From positions 1-58,907 of the forward strand of contig JACPLI010000003.1 of assembly GCA_016186635.1 (NCBI GenBank): a stretch of 58,907 nucleotides of DNA, given 5' to 3'. The stretch is from Candidatus Liptonbacteria bacterium. Its GTDB lineage: Bacteria; Patescibacteriota; Minisyncoccia; UBA6257; 2-01-FULL-56-20. This document shows, piece by piece, positions 14,475 through 46,410 of this stretch (position 1 is the first letter of the stretch; each line of letters starts with the position of its first letter). Below the pieces are notes generated by a model. The model was given only the letters and a program-made list of their open reading frames with translations. It was not told the origin of the DNA and searched no databases. Position numbers and translations under genes: made by a program.

Positions 14475-15950
14475 ATGTCTAAGGAAGAGATTGAAAAACT
14501 CTCGCGGGTGGAGGTGGGCGACGACTACGAAGTGGTGCGTATGCGCCCCGCGGAACTTTTGACGCCCGCGAATTACGTGGACATCCTCGCGAAATACCTG
14601 TATGCGAAAGCGCATCGGGACGGCACGCTCACGGACTGGACGGTTGCGCTCTACCTCCGGCACCTCATGGTCCGGAACCGGCTGTTCGATGGGGTGGAGC
14701 GGGCATCCGCCGCCGCATTTCGGGAGAGCTTTCACGCGCTTCTCGATTCGATTGCCAAGGAGGGATTTGATGAGAAAAGGTCCATTGTTTCCGTCACGCG
14801 GACCTTGGACATTCTAGACGGGTACCACCGCGTTGCCGCCGCGCTCCTCTACGGCGGGGAGATTACGGTGGTGAAGACCGCGCGGCCGTGGCCCGCGTGG
14901 GGAGCGGATTCATTTCGGAAGCGGGGACTCGAAGAGACATTTTTGGACCAGGCATCGCTCGAGTACTGCAGGGTGAACCCCCACGCGAGGTTGGCAGTTA
15001 TCTTCCCGATAGTGAAAGATAAGTATGAAGCTATCAGGGACATGCTTGCCGCACACACGGTGTATTATGAGAAGCATTTCGTGCCCACCATTCAGGGCGT
15101 TGGCAATTTAATAGCCCAGATGTACAAGCCGAAGGATTGGCTGAACGCGGCAACGCGGGACAGGCACGCGGTACGGAGATTTGTGCGCGGTGCGCCGGTT
15201 CGCATCCTGCTCTTAAACCCAAAGACGCAGGAGGACTTGGTGAAGACGAAAGCGGGTATCCGGAAGATGTTCGACCACGAGAATCTTCCCATTCACACGT
15301 CTGATGACCGCGAAGAGACCCTGCGCGTGGCGGAGCAGGTTTTCAACGAGCACAGCATTCATTTTTGGAATAATGCCCACCCGACCAAATTTGAGAATTT
15401 TTCTAAGCTTTTCGAGCGTTATAAGGAATGGATACGGACGAACCACTACGACAAGGACGAGTTTTGCGTGGACGGCTCGGCGGTGCTCGCCGCATACGGC
15501 TTGCGGGACTGCGGGGATTTCGACTACCTCAGTTTGAGGGACACGCGTTCCGATGTAGAGAAAGTGCGGAGCCATAATGATTTTCTCTATCTCCACAGCC
15601 GGCCGCTTGTGGAACTTGTTTCTGACCCGCGCAACTATTTCTACTACGATGGCCATAAGTTCCTTGCGCTCGAGCGCGAGATTGAGTTCAAAGCGCGGCG
15701 GCGGGACCCGCAGGATGCGCGGGACGTTGCGCTCATGCGCGCGGTTCCTGCAGGGAAGTCGTTCCCCCGGACGCTTGGCCGGGCGCTTACCCCAAAACGC
15801 CTGTGGAACCACGCCGTTATGCACGGAGTCCACGCCTTGTGGCGTATGTATATCCTCCTCCCGAAAAAAACCCGGCCTTTCGCGGTGAAGCTCTACGGTG
15901 CTTTGAAAAAAATCTACCAGGCGGTGCGCAAGCTGGTGTGGAAGTATTGA
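14475..15950 (+). CDS. Hypothetical protein: ParB/Srx-like N-terminus plus Pol-beta-type nucleotidyltransferase-like C-terminus
   Basis: ILDGYHRVAAAL; VDGSAVLAAYGLRDCGDFDYL. Confidence 0.55.
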   Translation: MSKEEIEKLSRVEVGDDYEVVRMRPAELLTPANYVDILAKYLYAKAHRDGTLTDWTVALYLRHLMVRNRLFDGVERASAAAFRESFHALLDSIAKEGFDEKRSIVSVTRTLDILDGYHRVAAALLYGGEITVVKTARPWPAWGADSFRKRGLEETFLDQASLEYCRVNPHARLAVIFPIVKDKYEAIRDMLAAHTVYYEKHFVPTIQGVGNLIAQMYKPKDWLNAATRDRHAVRRFVRGAPVRILLLNPKTQEDLVKTKAGIRKMFDHENLPIHTSDDREETLRVAEQVFNEHSIHFWNNAHPTKFENFSKLFERYKEWIRTNHYDKDEFCVDGSAVLAAYGLRDCGDFDYLSLRDTRSDVEKVRSHNDFLYLHSRPLVELVSDPRNYFYYDGHKFLALEREIEFKARRRDPQDARDVALMRAVPAGKSFPRTLGRALTPKRLWNHAVMHGVHALWRMYILLPKKTRPFAVKLYGALKKIYQAVRKLVWKY

Positions 15951-17494: not shown

Positions 17495-18757
17495 ATGTCT
17501 CAAGAAAATGACACCCCCCAGAAAATCTCGGGGTGCCGTGCGTGCGGGAACGGGAACCTCGTGCCGTGCGTGAGCATCGGCTCGCAGTACCTCTCCTCGG
17601 TGTTTCCGGCGACGCTTGACTACGCAAATTCAGTGCCGCGGTGGCCGCTGGACCTCGTGATGTGCAAGAAGAGCGATGCCACCTGCGGACTCGTGCAGCT
17701 CGCGCACGCGATTGATTTGACGAGCATGTATGACGCGTATCCCTACACCAGCTCGACCAATTCCTCTATGGCGGGGATACTCCAAAGCGTTGCCGAAGAC
17801 GGCAAGGCGCTCAAAACCCTGGAATCCGGTGATGTGGTGCTTGATATCGGCGGGAACGACGGGACACTCCTCTCGTTTTTTAAGGACGCGCCGGTGTCGC
17901 TTGTAAACATTGACCCCGCAAAAAATGTGAAGCCGCTCTTGCAGTCCGAGCGCTACACGCACCTCGCCGATTTCTTCAGCGAAGCGGCGTTCAAAAAGGC
18001 GTCCGGCACAAAGGCGAAGCTCATTTTCAGCGTGGCGATGTTCTACCACTTGAGCGACCCGCTCCGCTTCACGCGGGAAGTCGCCGCATGCCTCCACAAT
18101 GCGGGCGCATGGATTATTCAGATGGCGTACCTGCCCGCGATGCTTTGGACCAATATGTACGACAACATTGTGCACGAGCACAACGGGTATTACGCGGCGC
18201 AGCACACGAAGTGGATTATGGAGCAAGCGGGACTCGAGGTGTTTGACGTGTCGGAGAATGCGGTCTACGGCGGGAGTTTCCGCGTGTTCGTGAAGAAGAA
18301 AGGGAATGCGCAATTTCCCCTTACCGCGCGCTATCAGAAAATGCTCGCGGATGAATTGCGGCAAGGCATCTTCGACGAGGAGACGTACCGCCAGTTTGCC
18401 GCGCGGATTCAAAAAACGAGGGAAGACCTCCGCGCGCTCTGCGCGTCGCTCCGGGATGCCGGGAAGGCGATTTGGATTTACGGCGCTTCCACGAAGGGGA
18501 ACACCATTCTCCAATACTGCGGGTTGGGCAAGGAGTACTTTACGGCGGCGGCGGACTCCAATCCTTTTAAGGTAGGGAAGTACATCATTGGTTCGGATGT
18601 GCCCATCACAAGCGAGGCGGAGATGCGCGCGGCGAAGCCGGATTATCTCCTCGCCCTGCCGTACAGTTTTGTGGACGCGTTTATGAAACGCGAAGCGGAT
18701 TTGGTGGTACAGGGCACGAAGTTCATAGTGCCTCTGCCGGCGGTGAAGGTTATATGA
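17495..18757 (+). CDS. NDP-sugar C-methyltransferase (Zn-binding; TylCIII/TcaB9-like)
   Basis: CRACG..C..CGLVQL Zn site, DIGGNDGTLL, YDNIVHEH, YGGS, YGASTKGNT. Confidence 0.88.
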   Translation: MSQENDTPQKISGCRACGNGNLVPCVSIGSQYLSSVFPATLDYANSVPRWPLDLVMCKKSDATCGLVQLAHAIDLTSMYDAYPYTSSTNSSMAGILQSVAEDGKALKTLESGDVVLDIGGNDGTLLSFFKDAPVSLVNIDPAKNVKPLLQSERYTHLADFFSEAAFKKASGTKAKLIFSVAMFYHLSDPLRFTREVAACLHNAGAWIIQMAYLPAMLWTNMYDNIVHEHNGYYAAQHTKWIMEQAGLEVFDVSENAVYGGSFRVFVKKKGNAQFPLTARYQKMLADELRQGIFDEETYRQFAARIQKTREDLRALCASLRDAGKAIWIYGASTKGNTILQYCGLGKEYFTAAADSNPFKVGKYIIGSDVPITSEAEMRAAKPDYLLALPYSFVDAFMKREADLVVQGTKFIVPLPAVKVI

Positions 18758-18775
18758 TTATGATACCGCGAGCGC

Positions 18776-18865
18776 ATATGCTTCACGAGGGCTTCTCGCA
18801 GACCGACGGGTCGAGAGAGAGTGCTGCGGCAGCCCGCCGCAGATAACGTCCCTCGTGAGGCATAT
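18776..18865 (+). other. Structured three-way-junction element, copy X (candidate ncRNA or small mobile palindromic element)
   Basis: 16-bp outer stem and two inner hairpins; core shared with 45784-45887 on the opposite strand, with compensatory changes. Confidence 0.65.
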
Positions 18866-18891
18866 CGTGAACGGTTAATGTCAAAATACAA

Positions 18892-20106
18892 ATGAAGATC
18901 GCGATAGTGTGCCTTAATCTTGGCTGGCAGACAGGCGGCCCGCGCCTCATCTTCTCTTCCGCGCAGGCCCTGAAGCGGCTTGGCCACACGGTGAAGATTT
19001 ATGCTCCCGATTATGACCCGAACACCTACCCCGAGCTTTCGGCGGGGCTTGATGCGCAAAAAGTGAGCGTGGGGAAAGACGTTTCGTGGAAGTATCACAG
19101 CAGCAACTTGCTTTTCCGCATCATGGAGAAAGTGAAGCGGGAGCGCACCTTGCAGGCGAGCGTGCGAAAAATCGCGCGCGTGATGGACGGCGACTTCGAC
19201 ATGGTGAATGTCCATGACTATGCCTACACGCTCGCCCCGCGCGTGCGGGAGCGGAATCCCCGAGCGACGGTAGTCTGGACCATGAACGACGTTCCCTATA
19301 TGTACATGCCGAAGAAGAACCTCGTCTATGACCTTTTGACGCGTCTCTACAACTGGTGGACTGCCCGCAGGGCGGACACCGCATACCTGCCGCACATTTC
19401 ATACGGGGTGGTGTTCCGCGAGCATAATGCGCAGTGGCTCCGGGCGCACGGCATCACGCCGATACTCCTCTGGCCGGGCATCAACTGCGAAACATTTTAC
19501 GCGCCCGTGCGCGCGCTCACCGCGCCCCAGAAGTCGTGCGTGCTCCTCGGCGTGGGCGCGTTCAACCGTTTTCGGAGATATGACGATATCATTGCGGCGG
19601 CCGCGATGCTTCGCAAGAAAGGATATGACGCGCGAGTGCTTTTGGTGTGCAAAGATATCTGGGACGCAGCGGAGGACAAAAAAGAAATACTCCGGAAAAC
19701 AAAGGAGCTGGGGATGGAGCTATATGTGACATTTCTCTTCGAGGGCGCTTCCGAGCGGGAACTCGCGCGTATCTACCGCGAGAGCGACGTGTTTGTGGCG
19801 TCCACCCACATCCCGCCGCCGCGGAGCGGGTACTCCTGGGGACTCGCGCTTTTTGAAGCCGCCGCGGCGGGCATCCCCATTGTGCTCTCAAATCGCAACG
19901 ACGCGCAGGAGGCGCTCCCGGGAGAAAAGGGCTCGCTCCTCTTTACTCCCTGCGAACCCAAAGAAATTGCAGAGCAGGTGGAGCGGTTCATGACGAACCC
20001 CGCGCTCCGCAATGCGCTCTGCGAGTACGCGCAACGGGTAGTGAAAGAGAAAATGAACTGGGACTATTATGCGCGCGAGTTAATAGCGCAAGCAAAACCG
20101 CGATGA
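18892..20106 (+). CDS. Glycosyltransferase family 4
   Basis: GGPR N-terminal motif; SDVFV...WGLALFEAAAAGIPIV. Confidence 0.85.
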   Translation: MKIAIVCLNLGWQTGGPRLIFSSAQALKRLGHTVKIYAPDYDPNTYPELSAGLDAQKVSVGKDVSWKYHSSNLLFRIMEKVKRERTLQASVRKIARVMDGDFDMVNVHDYAYTLAPRVRERNPRATVVWTMNDVPYMYMPKKNLVYDLLTRLYNWWTARRADTAYLPHISYGVVFREHNAQWLRAHGITPILLWPGINCETFYAPVRALTAPQKSCVLLGVGAFNRFRRYDDIIAAAAMLRKKGYDARVLLVCKDIWDAAEDKKEILRKTKELGMELYVTFLFEGASERELARIYRESDVFVASTHIPPPRSGYSWGLALFEAAAAGIPIVLSNRNDAQEALPGEKGSLLFTPCEPKEIAEQVERFMTNPALRNALCEYAQRVVKEKMNWDYYARELIAQAKPR

Positions 20107-44250: not shown

Positions 44251-44287
44251 TAATTGGTAATTACGCAATTACTATTTACCCAGTTAC
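44243..44287. repeat. GTAATT/AATTAC hairpin spanning two convergent stop codons
   Basis: GTAACTAGTAATTGGTAATT-ACGC-AATTACTATTTACCCAGTTAC. Confidence 0.6.
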
Positions 44288-45750
44288 GAGTGCATAATTG
44301 CTTGCTTCGCTTCTCTGAGCGACGGCTCCTTGAGGAAGTAGAGCACGGCGCCGTAGATTGCCGCGCCGAGCGCCACGGAGAGGAGCACGGGGAGCTTGAT
44401 GCTCATAAAGAGGAGCACCCCGCCCGCCATGATGGCGGTTGCGGTGAAGGCGATGGAGAGGCGGGGGAGGACGCTGAAGGGGTTCTCCTGCTTCACTTTC
44501 CTCCGGAGGTAGGCGGTGGAGCACACTTGCGCGATGAGCGTTGCCCATGCGCACCCCGTGATGCCGAAGGAAGGAATCAAGAGAAAATCGAGCGCGACAT
44601 TGAGTACGCCTCCTATCGCCGCGTATGCGGTGAGGAGCTTCGGGCGGTTGTAGGCAAATGCGGCGTGGGCGAGCACCACGACGGGGAAGTCCGCAAGGAG
44701 GGTGAGCATGAGGATTTGGAACGGAGCGGTGCCGGGGAGGAATTCGCTCCCGAAGAGAAGCTCGATAATCTGCGGCGCGAGGAGGAGGCCCCCCGCGGCG
44801 AGCGGGAGCGCCATGATGAATACGACCGCGAGCGTACGCTCAAGCGTTGAGCGCATCTGCGCCCTGTGGTTGTCCGCAAGGCGGGAGAATGTCGGGAATG
44901 CGCTCGAGGCGAGGATGCCGGGGAGCAGGTAAAGGAGCTGGACGACGCGGTACGCGGCGGAGTAGAAACCGACCTCTTCCGCGGAGCGAAGCCAGCCGAT
45001 GATGAGGATGTCAGTGTTAATCATAAGAATGCCGAGGAGCGAGGCGATGGAGAGCGGCCAGGCGGCGGAGAGGATGGGCCTGACGAGGCGCTTTGAAAAG
45101 CTCGCGATGAGATTTCTCGGGATGTATCCGCGGAGCACCACGAAGGTGAGCGCGGCGCCGATGCCGGTGCCCACCGTATAGCCCCACGTGAACGACTCCG
45201 CCGTCGGCGAGAGCAGAAGGAACCCGAATCCCGCGAGGACGATGGCGACGTTTGTCGCGAGGAAGAGTCCCGCTTCCCACTCCATCCGCTCGAGCGCGCG
45301 GGTAATCGCGGCGCCGAACTCGCGGAGCGTGTCGAAGGCGAGGAGGAATGCGATGATGGGGAGTATTACCTTCGCTTCTTCGATGGTGGTGAACCACGGC
45401 GCGGCGACGAGGATGATGAGTACGCCGAGGAGAAGGAGGACGAGCTTCAGGGAGAGGGTGGTGGAGAATACCCGCGCACGGTGCGCGGGGTCATCATTCT
45501 TCGCGGTTTCTCGGATGAGGAATTGGCTGAGCCCCACGTCGGTGAACGGCGTGAGGATTGCGGCGAGCGTTACGCCGTAGGAGAACACACCCCAGCCCTC
45601 GGCGCCCAAGATGCGTGCGCCGTAGACAATAATGATGGCGCGTATGAAGCGCCCTCCGAAGTTTGAGATGCCGAGCCAGACGACATTTTTGATGACCGTC
45701 TGGCGGGTGGTGGTGTTATTGAAGAGGAAGGATTGTACCCGCTTCAGCAT
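44284..45750 (-). CDS. wzx: Wzx-type polysaccharide flippase
   Basis: Many TM segments; KNVVWL, ARILGAEGWG, DVGL, D..IIGW..SAEEVGFYSAAYR, LIPSFGITG; start 7 nt below TACTAT. Confidence 0.88.
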   Translation of the reverse strand: MLKRVQSFLFNNTTTRQTVIKNVVWLGISNFGGRFIRAIIIVYGARILGAEGWGVFSYGVTLAAILTPFTDVGLSQFLIRETAKNDDPAHRARVFSTTLSLKLVLLLLGVLIILVAAPWFTTIEEAKVILPIIAFLLAFDTLREFGAAITRALERMEWEAGLFLATNVAIVLAGFGFLLLSPTAESFTWGYTVGTGIGAALTFVVLRGYIPRNLIASFSKRLVRPILSAAWPLSIASLLGILMINTDILIIGWLRSAEEVGFYSAAYRVVQLLYLLPGILASSAFPTFSRLADNHRAQMRSTLERTLAVVFIMALPLAAGGLLLAPQIIELLFGSEFLPGTAPFQILMLTLLADFPVVVLAHAAFAYNRPKLLTAYAAIGGVLNVALDFLLIPSFGITGCAWATLIAQVCSTAYLRRKVKQENPFSVLPRLSIAFTATAIMAGGVLLFMSIKLPVLLSVALGAAIYGAVLYFLKEPSLREAKQAIMHS

Positions 45751-45783
45751 GTGGTGTATAGTACTGCAATATGATGGGAAACA

Positions 45784-45887
45784 CGAGTACATAATATTTC
45801 GCAGGGACGCTATCTGCGGCTTACTGCCGCAGCGCTCTCTCTCCCGCCGTCGCGGTCCGAGAAGCCCTGCGAAATATTGTGTACTCG
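45784..45887 (-). other. Structured three-way-junction element, copy Y
   Basis: 23-bp outer stem; core matches 18789-18852 when read on the minus strand. Confidence 0.65.
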
Positions 45888-45912: not shown

Positions 45913-46410
45913 ATGGAAAATAGTCCGAAGAAAAAAATCATGGTTGCGGTGAGCGGCGGGTTTGACCCGATTCACGTGGGGCACATCCGCCTTTTCGAGG
46001 AAGCGAGGAAACTGGGTGACGAGCTCGTCGTGATTTTGAACAACGATAACTGGTTGCACAAGAAAAAAAGGCATGTATTTATGCCCGAGGCGGAACGGAA
46101 AGAAATAATAGAAGCGTTAAAGCCGGTGGATCGGGTGGTGCTCACCAAACACGGCAAAAATCCCCAGATTCCTCATGACATGAGCGTTTCCCGCGAGCTC
46201 GAAGAGATTAGGCCGGATATTTTCGCGAACGGAGGGGACCGAGACGAGAAGAATGCGAGTGATCCGAACTCCTCGCTCTATGCGGATATCGAAACCTGCA
46301 AGAAACATGGAATCAAGATGATATTTAATATCGGGGACGGGGGGAAAGTGCAGTCCAGCTCCTGGCTCCTCAAAAATTATCTGGAGAAAGTTTCCAAAAA
46401 GGAGAAATAG
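45913..46410 (+). CDS. Cytidylyltransferase-like protein (TagD/RibL family)
   Basis: SGGFDPIHVGH, NND, ANGGDR, KVQSSS. Confidence 0.85.
   Translation: MENSPKKKIMVAVSGGFDPIHVGHIRLFEEARKLGDELVVILNNDNWLHKKKRHVFMPEAERKEIIEALKPVDRVVLTKHGKNPQIPHDMSVSRELEEIRPDIFANGGDRDEKNASDPNSSLYADIETCKKHGIKMIFNIGDGGKVQSSSWLLKNYLEKVSKKEK

Follow-up and report, generated by a model that had tools for sequence, protein, structure and literature searches.

The REP/BIME/REPIN repeats of Proteobacteria are mobilised by RAYT transposases of the Y1 type; REPs are enriched at the 3' ends of genes and between convergent genes, are transcribed as mRNA tails and have been proposed to serve mRNA protection, termination or DNA topology, and a single-stranded DNA (ssDNA) stage is the usual account of their strand bias. 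In the ERIC (IRU) and Correia (CREE/NEMIS) repeats, stem pairing is reportedly kept by compensatory change, and Correia hairpins are reportedly cut by RNase III. Here we describe an element that recalls both groups. It occurs twice in the window, that is, the whole stretch of 58,907 nucleotides that was analysed (Candidatus Liptonbacteria bacterium, assembly GCA_016186635.1, contig JACPLI010000003.1, positions 1 to 58,907), and consists of a conserved three-way junction of ~60 nt on a long outer stem of free sequence. Among the records searched, the element is a multi-copy family confined to Paceibacteria-type Patescibacteria (Candidate Phyla Radiation, CPR).

Like the REP/BIME/REPIN repeats, the element is small, gene-less, multi-copy, palindromic and extragenic, and it shows the REP-type enrichment at 3' ends and between convergent genes (8 of 19 copies as opposed to 83 of 584 background gaps, p = 0.003). 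REPs, however, keep the stem and leave the loop free, whereas the element keeps the tip and leaves the stem free; its copies number tens rather than hundreds, its tip is a branched three-way junction, and a RAYT gene is absent from the carrier genomes G000 (the 0.92-Mb source genome of the window), G125 and G150. With ERIC and Correia repeats it shares the format of intergenic imperfect palindromes of ~100-150 nt that give long transcript hairpins, the closeness to genes and the difference in filled sites between species. In contrast, those repeats, with their defined terminal repeats and target duplications, are conserved over the full length, whereas the element is conserved only over the ~60-nt tip, shows no target duplication and spans many families of a class-level lineage. 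A model of how a conserved hairpin could work as a handle is provided by the NTS/SRM hairpin repeats, which act as ssDNA, have an orientation-giving flank and are recognised by Ssn GIY-YIG nucleases; NTS elements are ~28 nt long, hundreds in number and clustered around the ssn gene itself (PMC11893778). In contrast, no gene recurs beside the present element, and its motif is unrelated and far larger. The element would thus appear to function most like REP/BIME, ERIC and Correia repeats, yet among the diagnostic properties of these families only the REP-type 3'-end position is found in it.

No description of the element was found in the titles and abstract openings of the literature searched on non-coding RNAs (ncRNAs) and palindromic repeats of CPR/Patescibacteria. 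The new observations are a quantified preference for gene ends and convergent gaps, an orientation linked to replication, the absence of a link to Y1, reverse transcriptase or TnpB-type genes, and evidence for a DNA-level origin of part of the stem complementarity.

Architecture and covariation

The first-pass annotation of the window had pointed to a covarying three-way-junction element at 18776-18865 (+) and 45784-45887 (-), and both copies are real: a 40-nt common core pattern matches the window exactly twice and has no match in 100 shuffles. The strand written in that annotation is referred to below as the element strand; P1 denotes the outer stem, P2 the inner hairpin and P3 the third helix of the three-way junction. 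The near-perfect outer stems of 16 bp (copy 1) and 23 bp (copy 2) were correctly described, with one non-Watson-Crick position in each; P1 measures 29-38 bp in G125, the family range being 16 to ~38 bp, and its sequence is free provided that the arms pair. The whole element is 100-170 nt long and contains no gene.

P2, the most conserved part of the family, has the layout UCUC, a 3-nt bulge G-N-A, 4 bp, a G-N-N-G loop and GAGA. The two window copies keep the GACG loop and compensate its stem (GACC/GGTC versus CCGC/GCGG), as had been noticed. The junction strand is purine-rich with AG at its end, and P3 consists of a 7-bp helix, an AGYNN loop and a 2-bp extension followed by A-N-A; a G-U in the return strand leads into the 3' arm of P1. 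The coupled T/C and A/G change, recorded in the first-pass annotation without a name, is a compensated pair in the 2-bp P3 extension (U-A in copy 1, C-G in most paralogues). Unpaired letters are conserved throughout the tip (UCUCG-N-AG, the G-N-N-G loop, CGAGAG..AG, the AGYNN loop, A-N-A and G-U); the conserved unpaired positions number only ~15.

None of 200 shuffles folds as well on the core strand as either window copy (minimum free energies, MFE, in Table 1), and the opposite strand reaches -47.3 kcal/mol in copy 1 and -63.1 kcal/mol in copy 2. The odd P1 position is a G-T on the + strand in both copies, which reads as U-G in copy 1 and C-A in copy 2 on the core strand. The early remark that this leaves the functional strand ambiguous is correct, the strand signal of the whole family (see below) being only moderate.

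All helices covary in three alignments. Among 10 paralogues from G000, 92.0% of the cells are paired and 21 of the 35 pairs vary on both sides, compared with 6-11 pairs in slid controls. The corresponding values are 93.5% and 34 of 35 for 59 copies from 22 other genomes (covariation score 0.83 versus 0.12-0.15 in slid controls), and 95.5% and 30 of 35 for 57 copies from named metagenome-assembled genomes (score 0.83); slid controls are 34-53% paired. All five helices covary and all 18 P1 pairs vary on both sides. In G150, a genome of another family, the core segments TTCTCG-N-AG, GAGAG..AGCG and ATAGCGTCCC are nearly unchanged while every helix differs. The median identity of cores within genomes is 0.7-0.89 in most multi-copy genomes (range 0.54-0.89); that of the outer 15+15 arm positions is 0.5-0.63 (~0.57), which is taken to be near background, as judged without a control.

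Several variants of the architecture were observed. Two G000 copies have one or two additional small hairpins in the junction strand and one is without P2; the hairpin insertions in the copies on contig C26 measure 20-40 nt. A second palindromic module of the CCTGCC..GGCAGG type is nested in the junction strand in G000 C26 (20837-20920 and 23664-23777, L008) and takes the place of P2 in G000 C19 (3900-3978, L010), and the element therefore tolerates insertions in this region. In two genomes, elements of opposite orientation stand back to back, 50-70 nt apart (Table 1). A pairing between the P2 and P3 loops was considered and rejected, no covariation being apparent by eye among the G000 copies.

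Family size and taxonomic spread

The family was delineated by pattern search, nhmmer and a covariance model (CM) R1 built from the 10 paralogues. This search for relatives, suggested in the first-pass annotation, yielded 12 matches in G000 (921 kb); by R1, 17 of 41 related genomes are carriers, as are 14 of a sample of 151 genomes of the order, G000 counted in both. Carrier genomes of 0.5-1.3 Mb contain 1-19 copies each, the highest numbers being those of G125 (17-19) and G034 (16), followed by 10 in G150; a complete Kaiserbacteria chromosome has only 2. Horizontal transfer, suggested by the high scores of G150, is not supported: the cores of G150 are no closer to those of G000 (identity 0.79) than are the cores of same-genus genomes, which reach the same value.

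A public scan, with one genome per species and a 28-letter pattern of conserved positions, selected at least 120 loci; the CM confirms 61 of 120 pattern-selected loci, among the matches listed. Among the 80 title-bearing loci listed, 42 are confirmed by the CM, comprising 35 with Patescibacteria-type labels (Kaiser-, Lipton-, Nomura-, Yonath- and Niyogibacteria, Paceibacterota, Parcubacteria, Minisyncoccia and some Saccharibacteria) and 7 with unspecific labels; none of these 42 carries the label of another phylum. Four pattern matches lie on viral contigs, none of them confirmed by the CM. In agreement with the early impression that no known ribozyme or RNA signature is present, Rfam 15 gives no match at gathering score over the whole window. 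A permissive search (E<=10) of 18600-19050 returned DUF3800-IV at 16.1 bits (threshold 60.7, E=7.2) and mir-360 at 15 bits, both of which are chance-level matches.

Gain, loss and the copied unit

The element is gained and lost at particular sites. In four sister species, the flippase and cytidylyltransferase genes that flank copy 2 are kept, and the gap between them is ~100-130 nt shorter and holds no palindrome. A site downstream of a DHH-family gene is filled in G002, G003 and G004 and empty in G000 and G001, with no residual palindrome at either empty site. Only 2-3 of the 12 G000 sites are filled in sister species, one of them inverted there relative to the common neighbour; the orthologous copies found in 2-3 species have different stems, each of which is self-complementary. 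A site divergent from a MraZ-like open reading frame (ORF) is filled in 4 genomes of two families (f1 and f3). Directly 3' of the copy at this site, three DnaA-box-like motifs are clustered (G000 C20, ~15200-15330, L005/L111; G026 L019), and the arrangement could represent an origin-like or DnaA-controlled region.

Paralogous copies show where the copied unit ends. In a trio of G034 copies, likeness starts and stops at the base of a 22-bp stem, so that stem and core are common and the flanks unrelated; the few arm differences between similar G034 copies are already compensated. Two G125 copies (L121 and L127) have an inner hairpin that is 98% identical, and their stems run on into differing, site-private palindromic sequence. 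Flanks are seldom alike between paralogues, of which 532 pairs include 9 with similar upstream and 6 with similar downstream sequence, and no target-site duplication is visible at the borders of recent G034, G073 and G125 copies. Thus, gain, loss and copying involve the hairpin as a whole, and the copies are not cores that entered pre-existing palindromes. The notion of a small mobile element in the centre of palindromes accordingly stands as far as gain, loss and copying are concerned and fails on the unit, which includes the stem, and on the empty sites, which hold no older palindrome, although the outermost part of the stem can be site-private, as in L121 versus L127. Stem complementarity also seems to be made or extended locally, and this points to events at the DNA level, for example template switching inside the hairpin.

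The outer 3' arm of copy 2, ATATTATGTACT (45784-45800, -), resembles the native promoter stretch ATATTGCAGTACT (45752-45768) ~20 nt downstream. This likeness could have been left by a stem that lengthened through copying of the DNA beside it; it is a weak match, made by eye, and chance is possible.

Some G034 copies (L077, L146 and L147, and also L141/L142) have both flanks in common and lie inside a larger repeated segment, which is not a tRNA gene. Insertion beside tRNA genes, a guess derived from G034 flanks, was rejected, there being no tRNA gene in 15 G034 loci; a tRNA scan of 60 loci found a tRNA gene in 7, none nearer than ~180 nt to the element. A promoter inside the copied unit was likewise rejected, as the likeness between paralogues is no greater in the 5' flanks than in the 3' flanks and the promoter scan of the window copies shows nothing positioned.

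Position relative to genes

Among 118 classified copies, 71 lie in tandem, 35 in convergent and 12 in divergent gaps. In 85 of 122 copies, the 3' neighbour of the element is a gene of the opposite strand, its stop codon lying at a median of ~21 nt from the end of the model; in the remaining 37 this neighbour is co-oriented. For a background, the 602-kb contig C8 of G125 was taken whole. Its gaps are 417 tandem, 84 divergent and 83 convergent (83/584, 14%), as opposed to 10 tandem, 1 divergent and 8 convergent for its 19 copies, which is the convergent excess given above. Nine of the ten tandem copies lie 7-24 nt past the preceding stop codon, in either orientation. In L059, two convergent ORFs, DnaN-like and PBP-like by their translations, leave a gap that the hairpin occupies completely, and both stop codons fall inside the 31-bp stem; this copy must be transcribed as an mRNA tail.

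The neighbours themselves are diverse. The 243 flanking ORFs form 209 clusters of housekeeping appearance, and no transposase or nuclease gene recurs among them. There is thus no pointer to a gene-specific cis-regulatory ncRNA, one of the forms that the ncRNA of the first-pass annotation might have taken, nor does the element behave like a riboswitch or another cis-regulator of the 5' untranslated region, with 37 of 122 downstream genes co-oriented and with so varied a set of neighbours. It shares with intrinsic bidirectional terminators a strong hairpin right behind stop codons, often between convergent genes, but is mostly without a U-tract, has a stem three to four times longer and a conserved, branched tip, and ordinary terminators stand separately beside some copies. 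A role as a canonical intrinsic terminator was rejected, U-tracts being rare on both strands.

The motif TTATCC[AC]CA, which is identical to the DnaA-box consensus, occurs 42 times in G000, 30 times as exact TTATCCACA, with ~7 occurrences expected by our own estimate. It is found 9-11 nt 3' of the copies on contigs C2, C19, C25 and C29 (L001, L010, L002 and L009), and often precedes a TATAAT-like box by ~22 nt, as it does in front of pilin-like genes. It was rejected as a part of the element and seems to be a motif common to promoter regions of this lineage or genome.

Strand asymmetry and orientation to replication

On the element strand, G-U pairs outnumber C-A mismatches by 106 to 61 in P1 and by 59 to 19 in the inner helices (43 to 19 once one lineage-specific column is set aside), and the MFE is lower on this strand in 97 copies as opposed to 26. 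The bias holds where both neighbouring genes are on the other strand (43:23 in P1, 23:11 in the inner helices). The strand signal is real but moderate.

The orientation of the element follows the replication strand. In contig C8 of G125, which was chosen for this test over the Kaiserbacteria chromosome with its 2 copies, the cumulative GC skew has its minimum at ~380-390 kb, beside a DnaN-like ORF, and this minimum is taken as the replication origin. To its left 9 of 12 copies are in + orientation and to its right 6 of 7 are in - orientation, the sole + copy on the right adjoining the minimum, so that the element strand is on the lagging-strand sequence in 15 of the 19 copies. Across 180 copies, the GC skew of the flanks on the element strand is negative in 122, positive in 57 and zero in 1; in G034, the skew fits the rule in 16 of 16 copies. 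Where skew and gene direction are discordant, skew predicts the orientation by 34 to 16. The + strand of the window has positive skew throughout, so that copy 2 fits the orientation rule and copy 1 does not.

Mobilising enzymes

The Y1 domain of IS200 and RAYT transposases (PF01797) is absent from G000, G125 and G150, which have 12, 17-19 and 10 copies of the element, respectively, and is present in G034 and in G001, which has none. Reverse transcriptase (PF00078) occurs in G001, which lacks the element, and in neither of the carriers G000 and G034, with their 12 and 16 copies, so that the co-occurrence typical of group II introns or retroelement repeats is lacking; a TnpB-type domain is found in none of five genomes. 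Nor does the element resemble a miniature inverted-repeat transposable element, given that its arms are not conserved, no duplication is visible and no transposase-like neighbour recurs. G150 (0.8 Mb) has seven reverse-transcriptase domain matches in five places (contigs C7, C19, C21 and C50) that are unrelated to the distribution of the element.

The two copies in the window

Both window copies are intergenic in a glycan locus, as had been recognised, the neighbouring genes being identified by Pfam (Table 1). Copy 1 obeys the stop-codon rule, with 19 nt between the stop codon of the methyltransferase gene and the 16-bp P1 (18776) and 17 nt to the start of the model match (18774); the glycosyltransferase gene begins 27 nt past its stem. 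Copy 2 lies in a divergent gap, a setting that is rare in the family. Promoter and terminator scans found no positioned sigma-70-like promoter and no intrinsic terminator at either copy. A -10-like box, TATAC(A), located within 45741-45770 (-) only ~5-7 nt before the ATG of the flippase gene and common to G000 and G001-G004, suggests a leaderless mRNA; a similar arrangement is seen at a GAPDH-like gene in G125 (L122).

Table 1. Coordinates of the window copies and their parts, of neighbouring genes and of back-to-back pairs in other genomes
Feature	Position	Strand	Details
Copy 1, whole element	18774..18867 (94 nt)	+	CM R1 96.3 bits; MFE -55.9 kcal/mol, z -6.2
Copy 1, P1 5' arm (16 nt)	18776..18791	+	partner 18850-18865, one U-G pair
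Copy 1, P2 hairpin	18794..18816	+	UCUC / bulge GCA / GACC / loop GACG / GGUC / GAGA
Copy 1, P3 hairpin	18821..18847	+	CUGCGGC-AGCCC-GCCGCAG plus 2-bp extension (G-C, U-A)
Copy 1, P1 3' arm	18850..18865	+	
Copy 2, whole element with 23-bp P1	45784..45887 (CM match 45789-45882)	-	CM R1 103.3 bits; MFE -63.8 kcal/mol, z -9.1
Copy 2, P2 hairpin	45840..45862	-	UCUC / GGA / CCGC / GACG / GCGG / GAGA
Copy 2, P3 hairpin	45809..45835	-	CUGCGGC-AGUAA-GCCGCAG plus 2-bp extension
Sugar C-methyltransferase gene, upstream of copy 1	17495..18757	+	Pfam Methyltransf_14/23/13
GT1/GT4 glycosyltransferase gene, downstream of copy 1	18892..20106	+	Pfam
Wzx-type polysaccharide flippase gene, downstream of copy 2 on the strand of copy 2	44284..45741	-	Pfam Polysacc_synt
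Cytidylyltransferase-like gene, divergent neighbour of copy 2	45940..46410	+	Pfam CTP_transf_like
Back-to-back pair 1, G125:C8	80392-80487 and 80559-80655	- and +	
Back-to-back pair 2, L062	1354-1449 and 1501-1596	- and +	

Interpretation

With moderate confidence, we read the element as a non-autonomous repeat of the REP/ERIC/Correia kind whose transcribed hairpin would act as a gene-end barrier and whose tip would be read on the single strand by a trans-acting factor. Such an element would move slowly and non-autonomously, in the fashion of those repeats, and its hairpin would enter RNA at the tail of neighbouring mRNAs or when transcription reads in from one side or the other. Between tightly packed genes, the long hairpin would form a 3'-end barrier that might protect against exonucleases and/or insulate the genes from antisense transcription and read-through. 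The putative factor would recognise the conserved junction tip as its handle, and action of this factor on the single-stranded form would account for the orientation linked to replication as well as for the tolerance of G-U/G-T on one strand. The perfect pairing of the stem may be partly upheld by DNA-level correction from arm to arm, not by RNA selection alone.

A number of observations weigh against this interpretation. No mobilising enzyme of the Y1, reverse transcriptase or TnpB type tracks the element, and all three were rejected, the test covering these and not other transposase or insertion sequence families. The element has no copy detectable by the CM in G001, a genome of the same genus that is 96% complete, and therefore is not essential; the copied unit is without a promoter. 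In tandem settings, the element is antisense to the gene in 48 copies and co-oriented in 23, and because of this mixed orientation a strand-specific RNA role does not follow from simple co-transcription. The hairpin is not regularly followed by a U-tract: at least 5 of 8 T within 16 nt past the stem are found on the element strand in 25 of 125 copies and on the opposite strand in 47, and at least 6 of 8 in 4 and 16 copies, respectively. Some copies sit past a canonical terminator (L033, L036 and a C26 copy), and others lie upstream of promoters or between divergent genes, copy 2 included. The better-folding strand is mostly on the leading-strand template, antisense to most genes; this template is not usually exposed at forks, and a single-stranded intermediate is therefore not a straightforward idea. 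The evidence itself has its limits in that the context counts use our own rough ORF calls, the alignments are CM-fitted and favour the structure and strand of the model (the contrast with slid controls is still large), and a weaker, alignment-free walk along P1 gives a G-U to C-A ratio of 32:17 (p=0.04). Finally, where complementarity is produced locally, the covariation of P1 is weaker as proof of RNA selection.

With lower probability, the tip might be more than this, namely the recognition module of an undescribed strand- and replication-direction-sensitive system of CPR bacteria, the element being a new structured cis-element through which a folded single strand of RNA or DNA is read at gene ends. 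In that case, it would not be a passive palindrome, nor would it be the relic of a classical transposon; the factor could be of host or selfish origin, and the hairpin would be built and lengthened by hairpin-templated DNA synthesis; a polar barrier against antisense or read-in transcription, or against conflicts between replication and transcription, would be one example.

It is possible, if unlikely, that the element is a dedicated structured RNA, that is, a regulatory or effector ncRNA rather than a repeat, in which the junction binds a specific protein or small molecule and the long stem presents the junction, for instance as a platform for antitermination or an RNA chaperone or as a Y-RNA-like scaffold. 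The conservation of unpaired junction letters across families while the helices covary, most clearly in the nearly unchanged cores of G150, is what such an RNA would show, and the element strand folds better even with both neighbours on the other strand; the stem changes between orthologues look, by eye and uncounted, to be mostly transitions, which could pass through G-U pairs. A dedicated RNA is, however, hard to reconcile with a copied unit that brings no promoter, none being positioned at the window copies either, with the lack of a constant gene partner and the mixed orientation to neighbours, and with the absence of the element from sister species and of any Rfam match.

We regard as rather unlikely a DNA-level element that works or spreads as ssDNA at the replication fork, its RNA folding being incidental, either as the target of an ssDNA enzyme in the manner of NTS/Ssn or REP/RAYT or as a polar signal for replication or repair. 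The orientation of the copies would be expected of such an element, as it tracks replication better than gene direction (15 of 19, 122 versus 57, 34 versus 16, and 16 of 16 in G034), as would near-identical copies with unrelated flanks, filled sites that differ by species and the site-private palindromic extension of L121 versus L127; hairpin repeats cut by ssDNA nucleases have a documented precedent (PMC11893778). Yet there is no Y1, reverse transcriptase or TnpB-type gene whose distribution follows that of the element, its neighbours include no recurrent nuclease or transposase gene, the better-folding strand is mostly not on the exposed lagging-strand template, the copies are few in each genome, some sites are kept across families, and none of the four viral-contig pattern matches was confirmed.

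It is doubtful that the copies are selfish or neutral palindromes without host function, with a covariation that is mechanical in origin (template switching, arm-to-arm correction) and a 3'-end position that reflects tolerance of insertion. Insertions do least harm behind stop codons, the distribution is patchy, the outer stems are near-perfect up to ~38 bp, and the already compensated arm differences in G034 suit a mechanical process. In contrast, correction cannot explain the conservation of unpaired junction letters across families, and sites have been retained over long distances in genomes of 0.5-1.3 Mb. The excess of G-U over C-A also argues in the other direction, as a replication-linked mutation bias, given the flank skew, would be expected to give the opposite G-T asymmetry.

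A new class of self-cleaving ribozyme, as the first-pass annotation had entertained, is highly improbable: such ribozymes usually occur in many copies and combine a variable closing stem with a conserved junction, which agrees with the multiple copies, variable P1 and conserved three-way junction seen here in genomes rich in small mobile elements, but the hammerhead, twister, twister-sister, pistol, hatchet and HDV-like models all fail to match even at E<=10, conserved unpaired positions are few, a pseudoknot is unsupported among the G000 copies by eye, the closing stem goes far beyond the needs of a ribozyme, and the C26 copies bear long hairpin insertions in the junction strand.

Implications for Patescibacteria

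CPR/Patescibacteria genomes are among the most streamlined, and their non-coding repertoire is hardly known. Nevertheless, a gene-less element of 100-170 nt is kept in these genomes of 0.5-1.3 Mb in up to ~19 copies each, with an architecture that is the reverse of that of classical bacterial repeats, the tip being conserved and the stem free, and with an orientation linked to replication. If the tip has a specific partner, the element would provide a handle on the biology of gene ends in CPR bacteria, including termination, mRNA decay, the avoidance of conflicts or a new form of mobility, and would be a useful marker for the annotation of CPR genomes. If it is merely a tolerated palindrome, it would show how long perfect hairpins are maintained and extended in minimal genomes.

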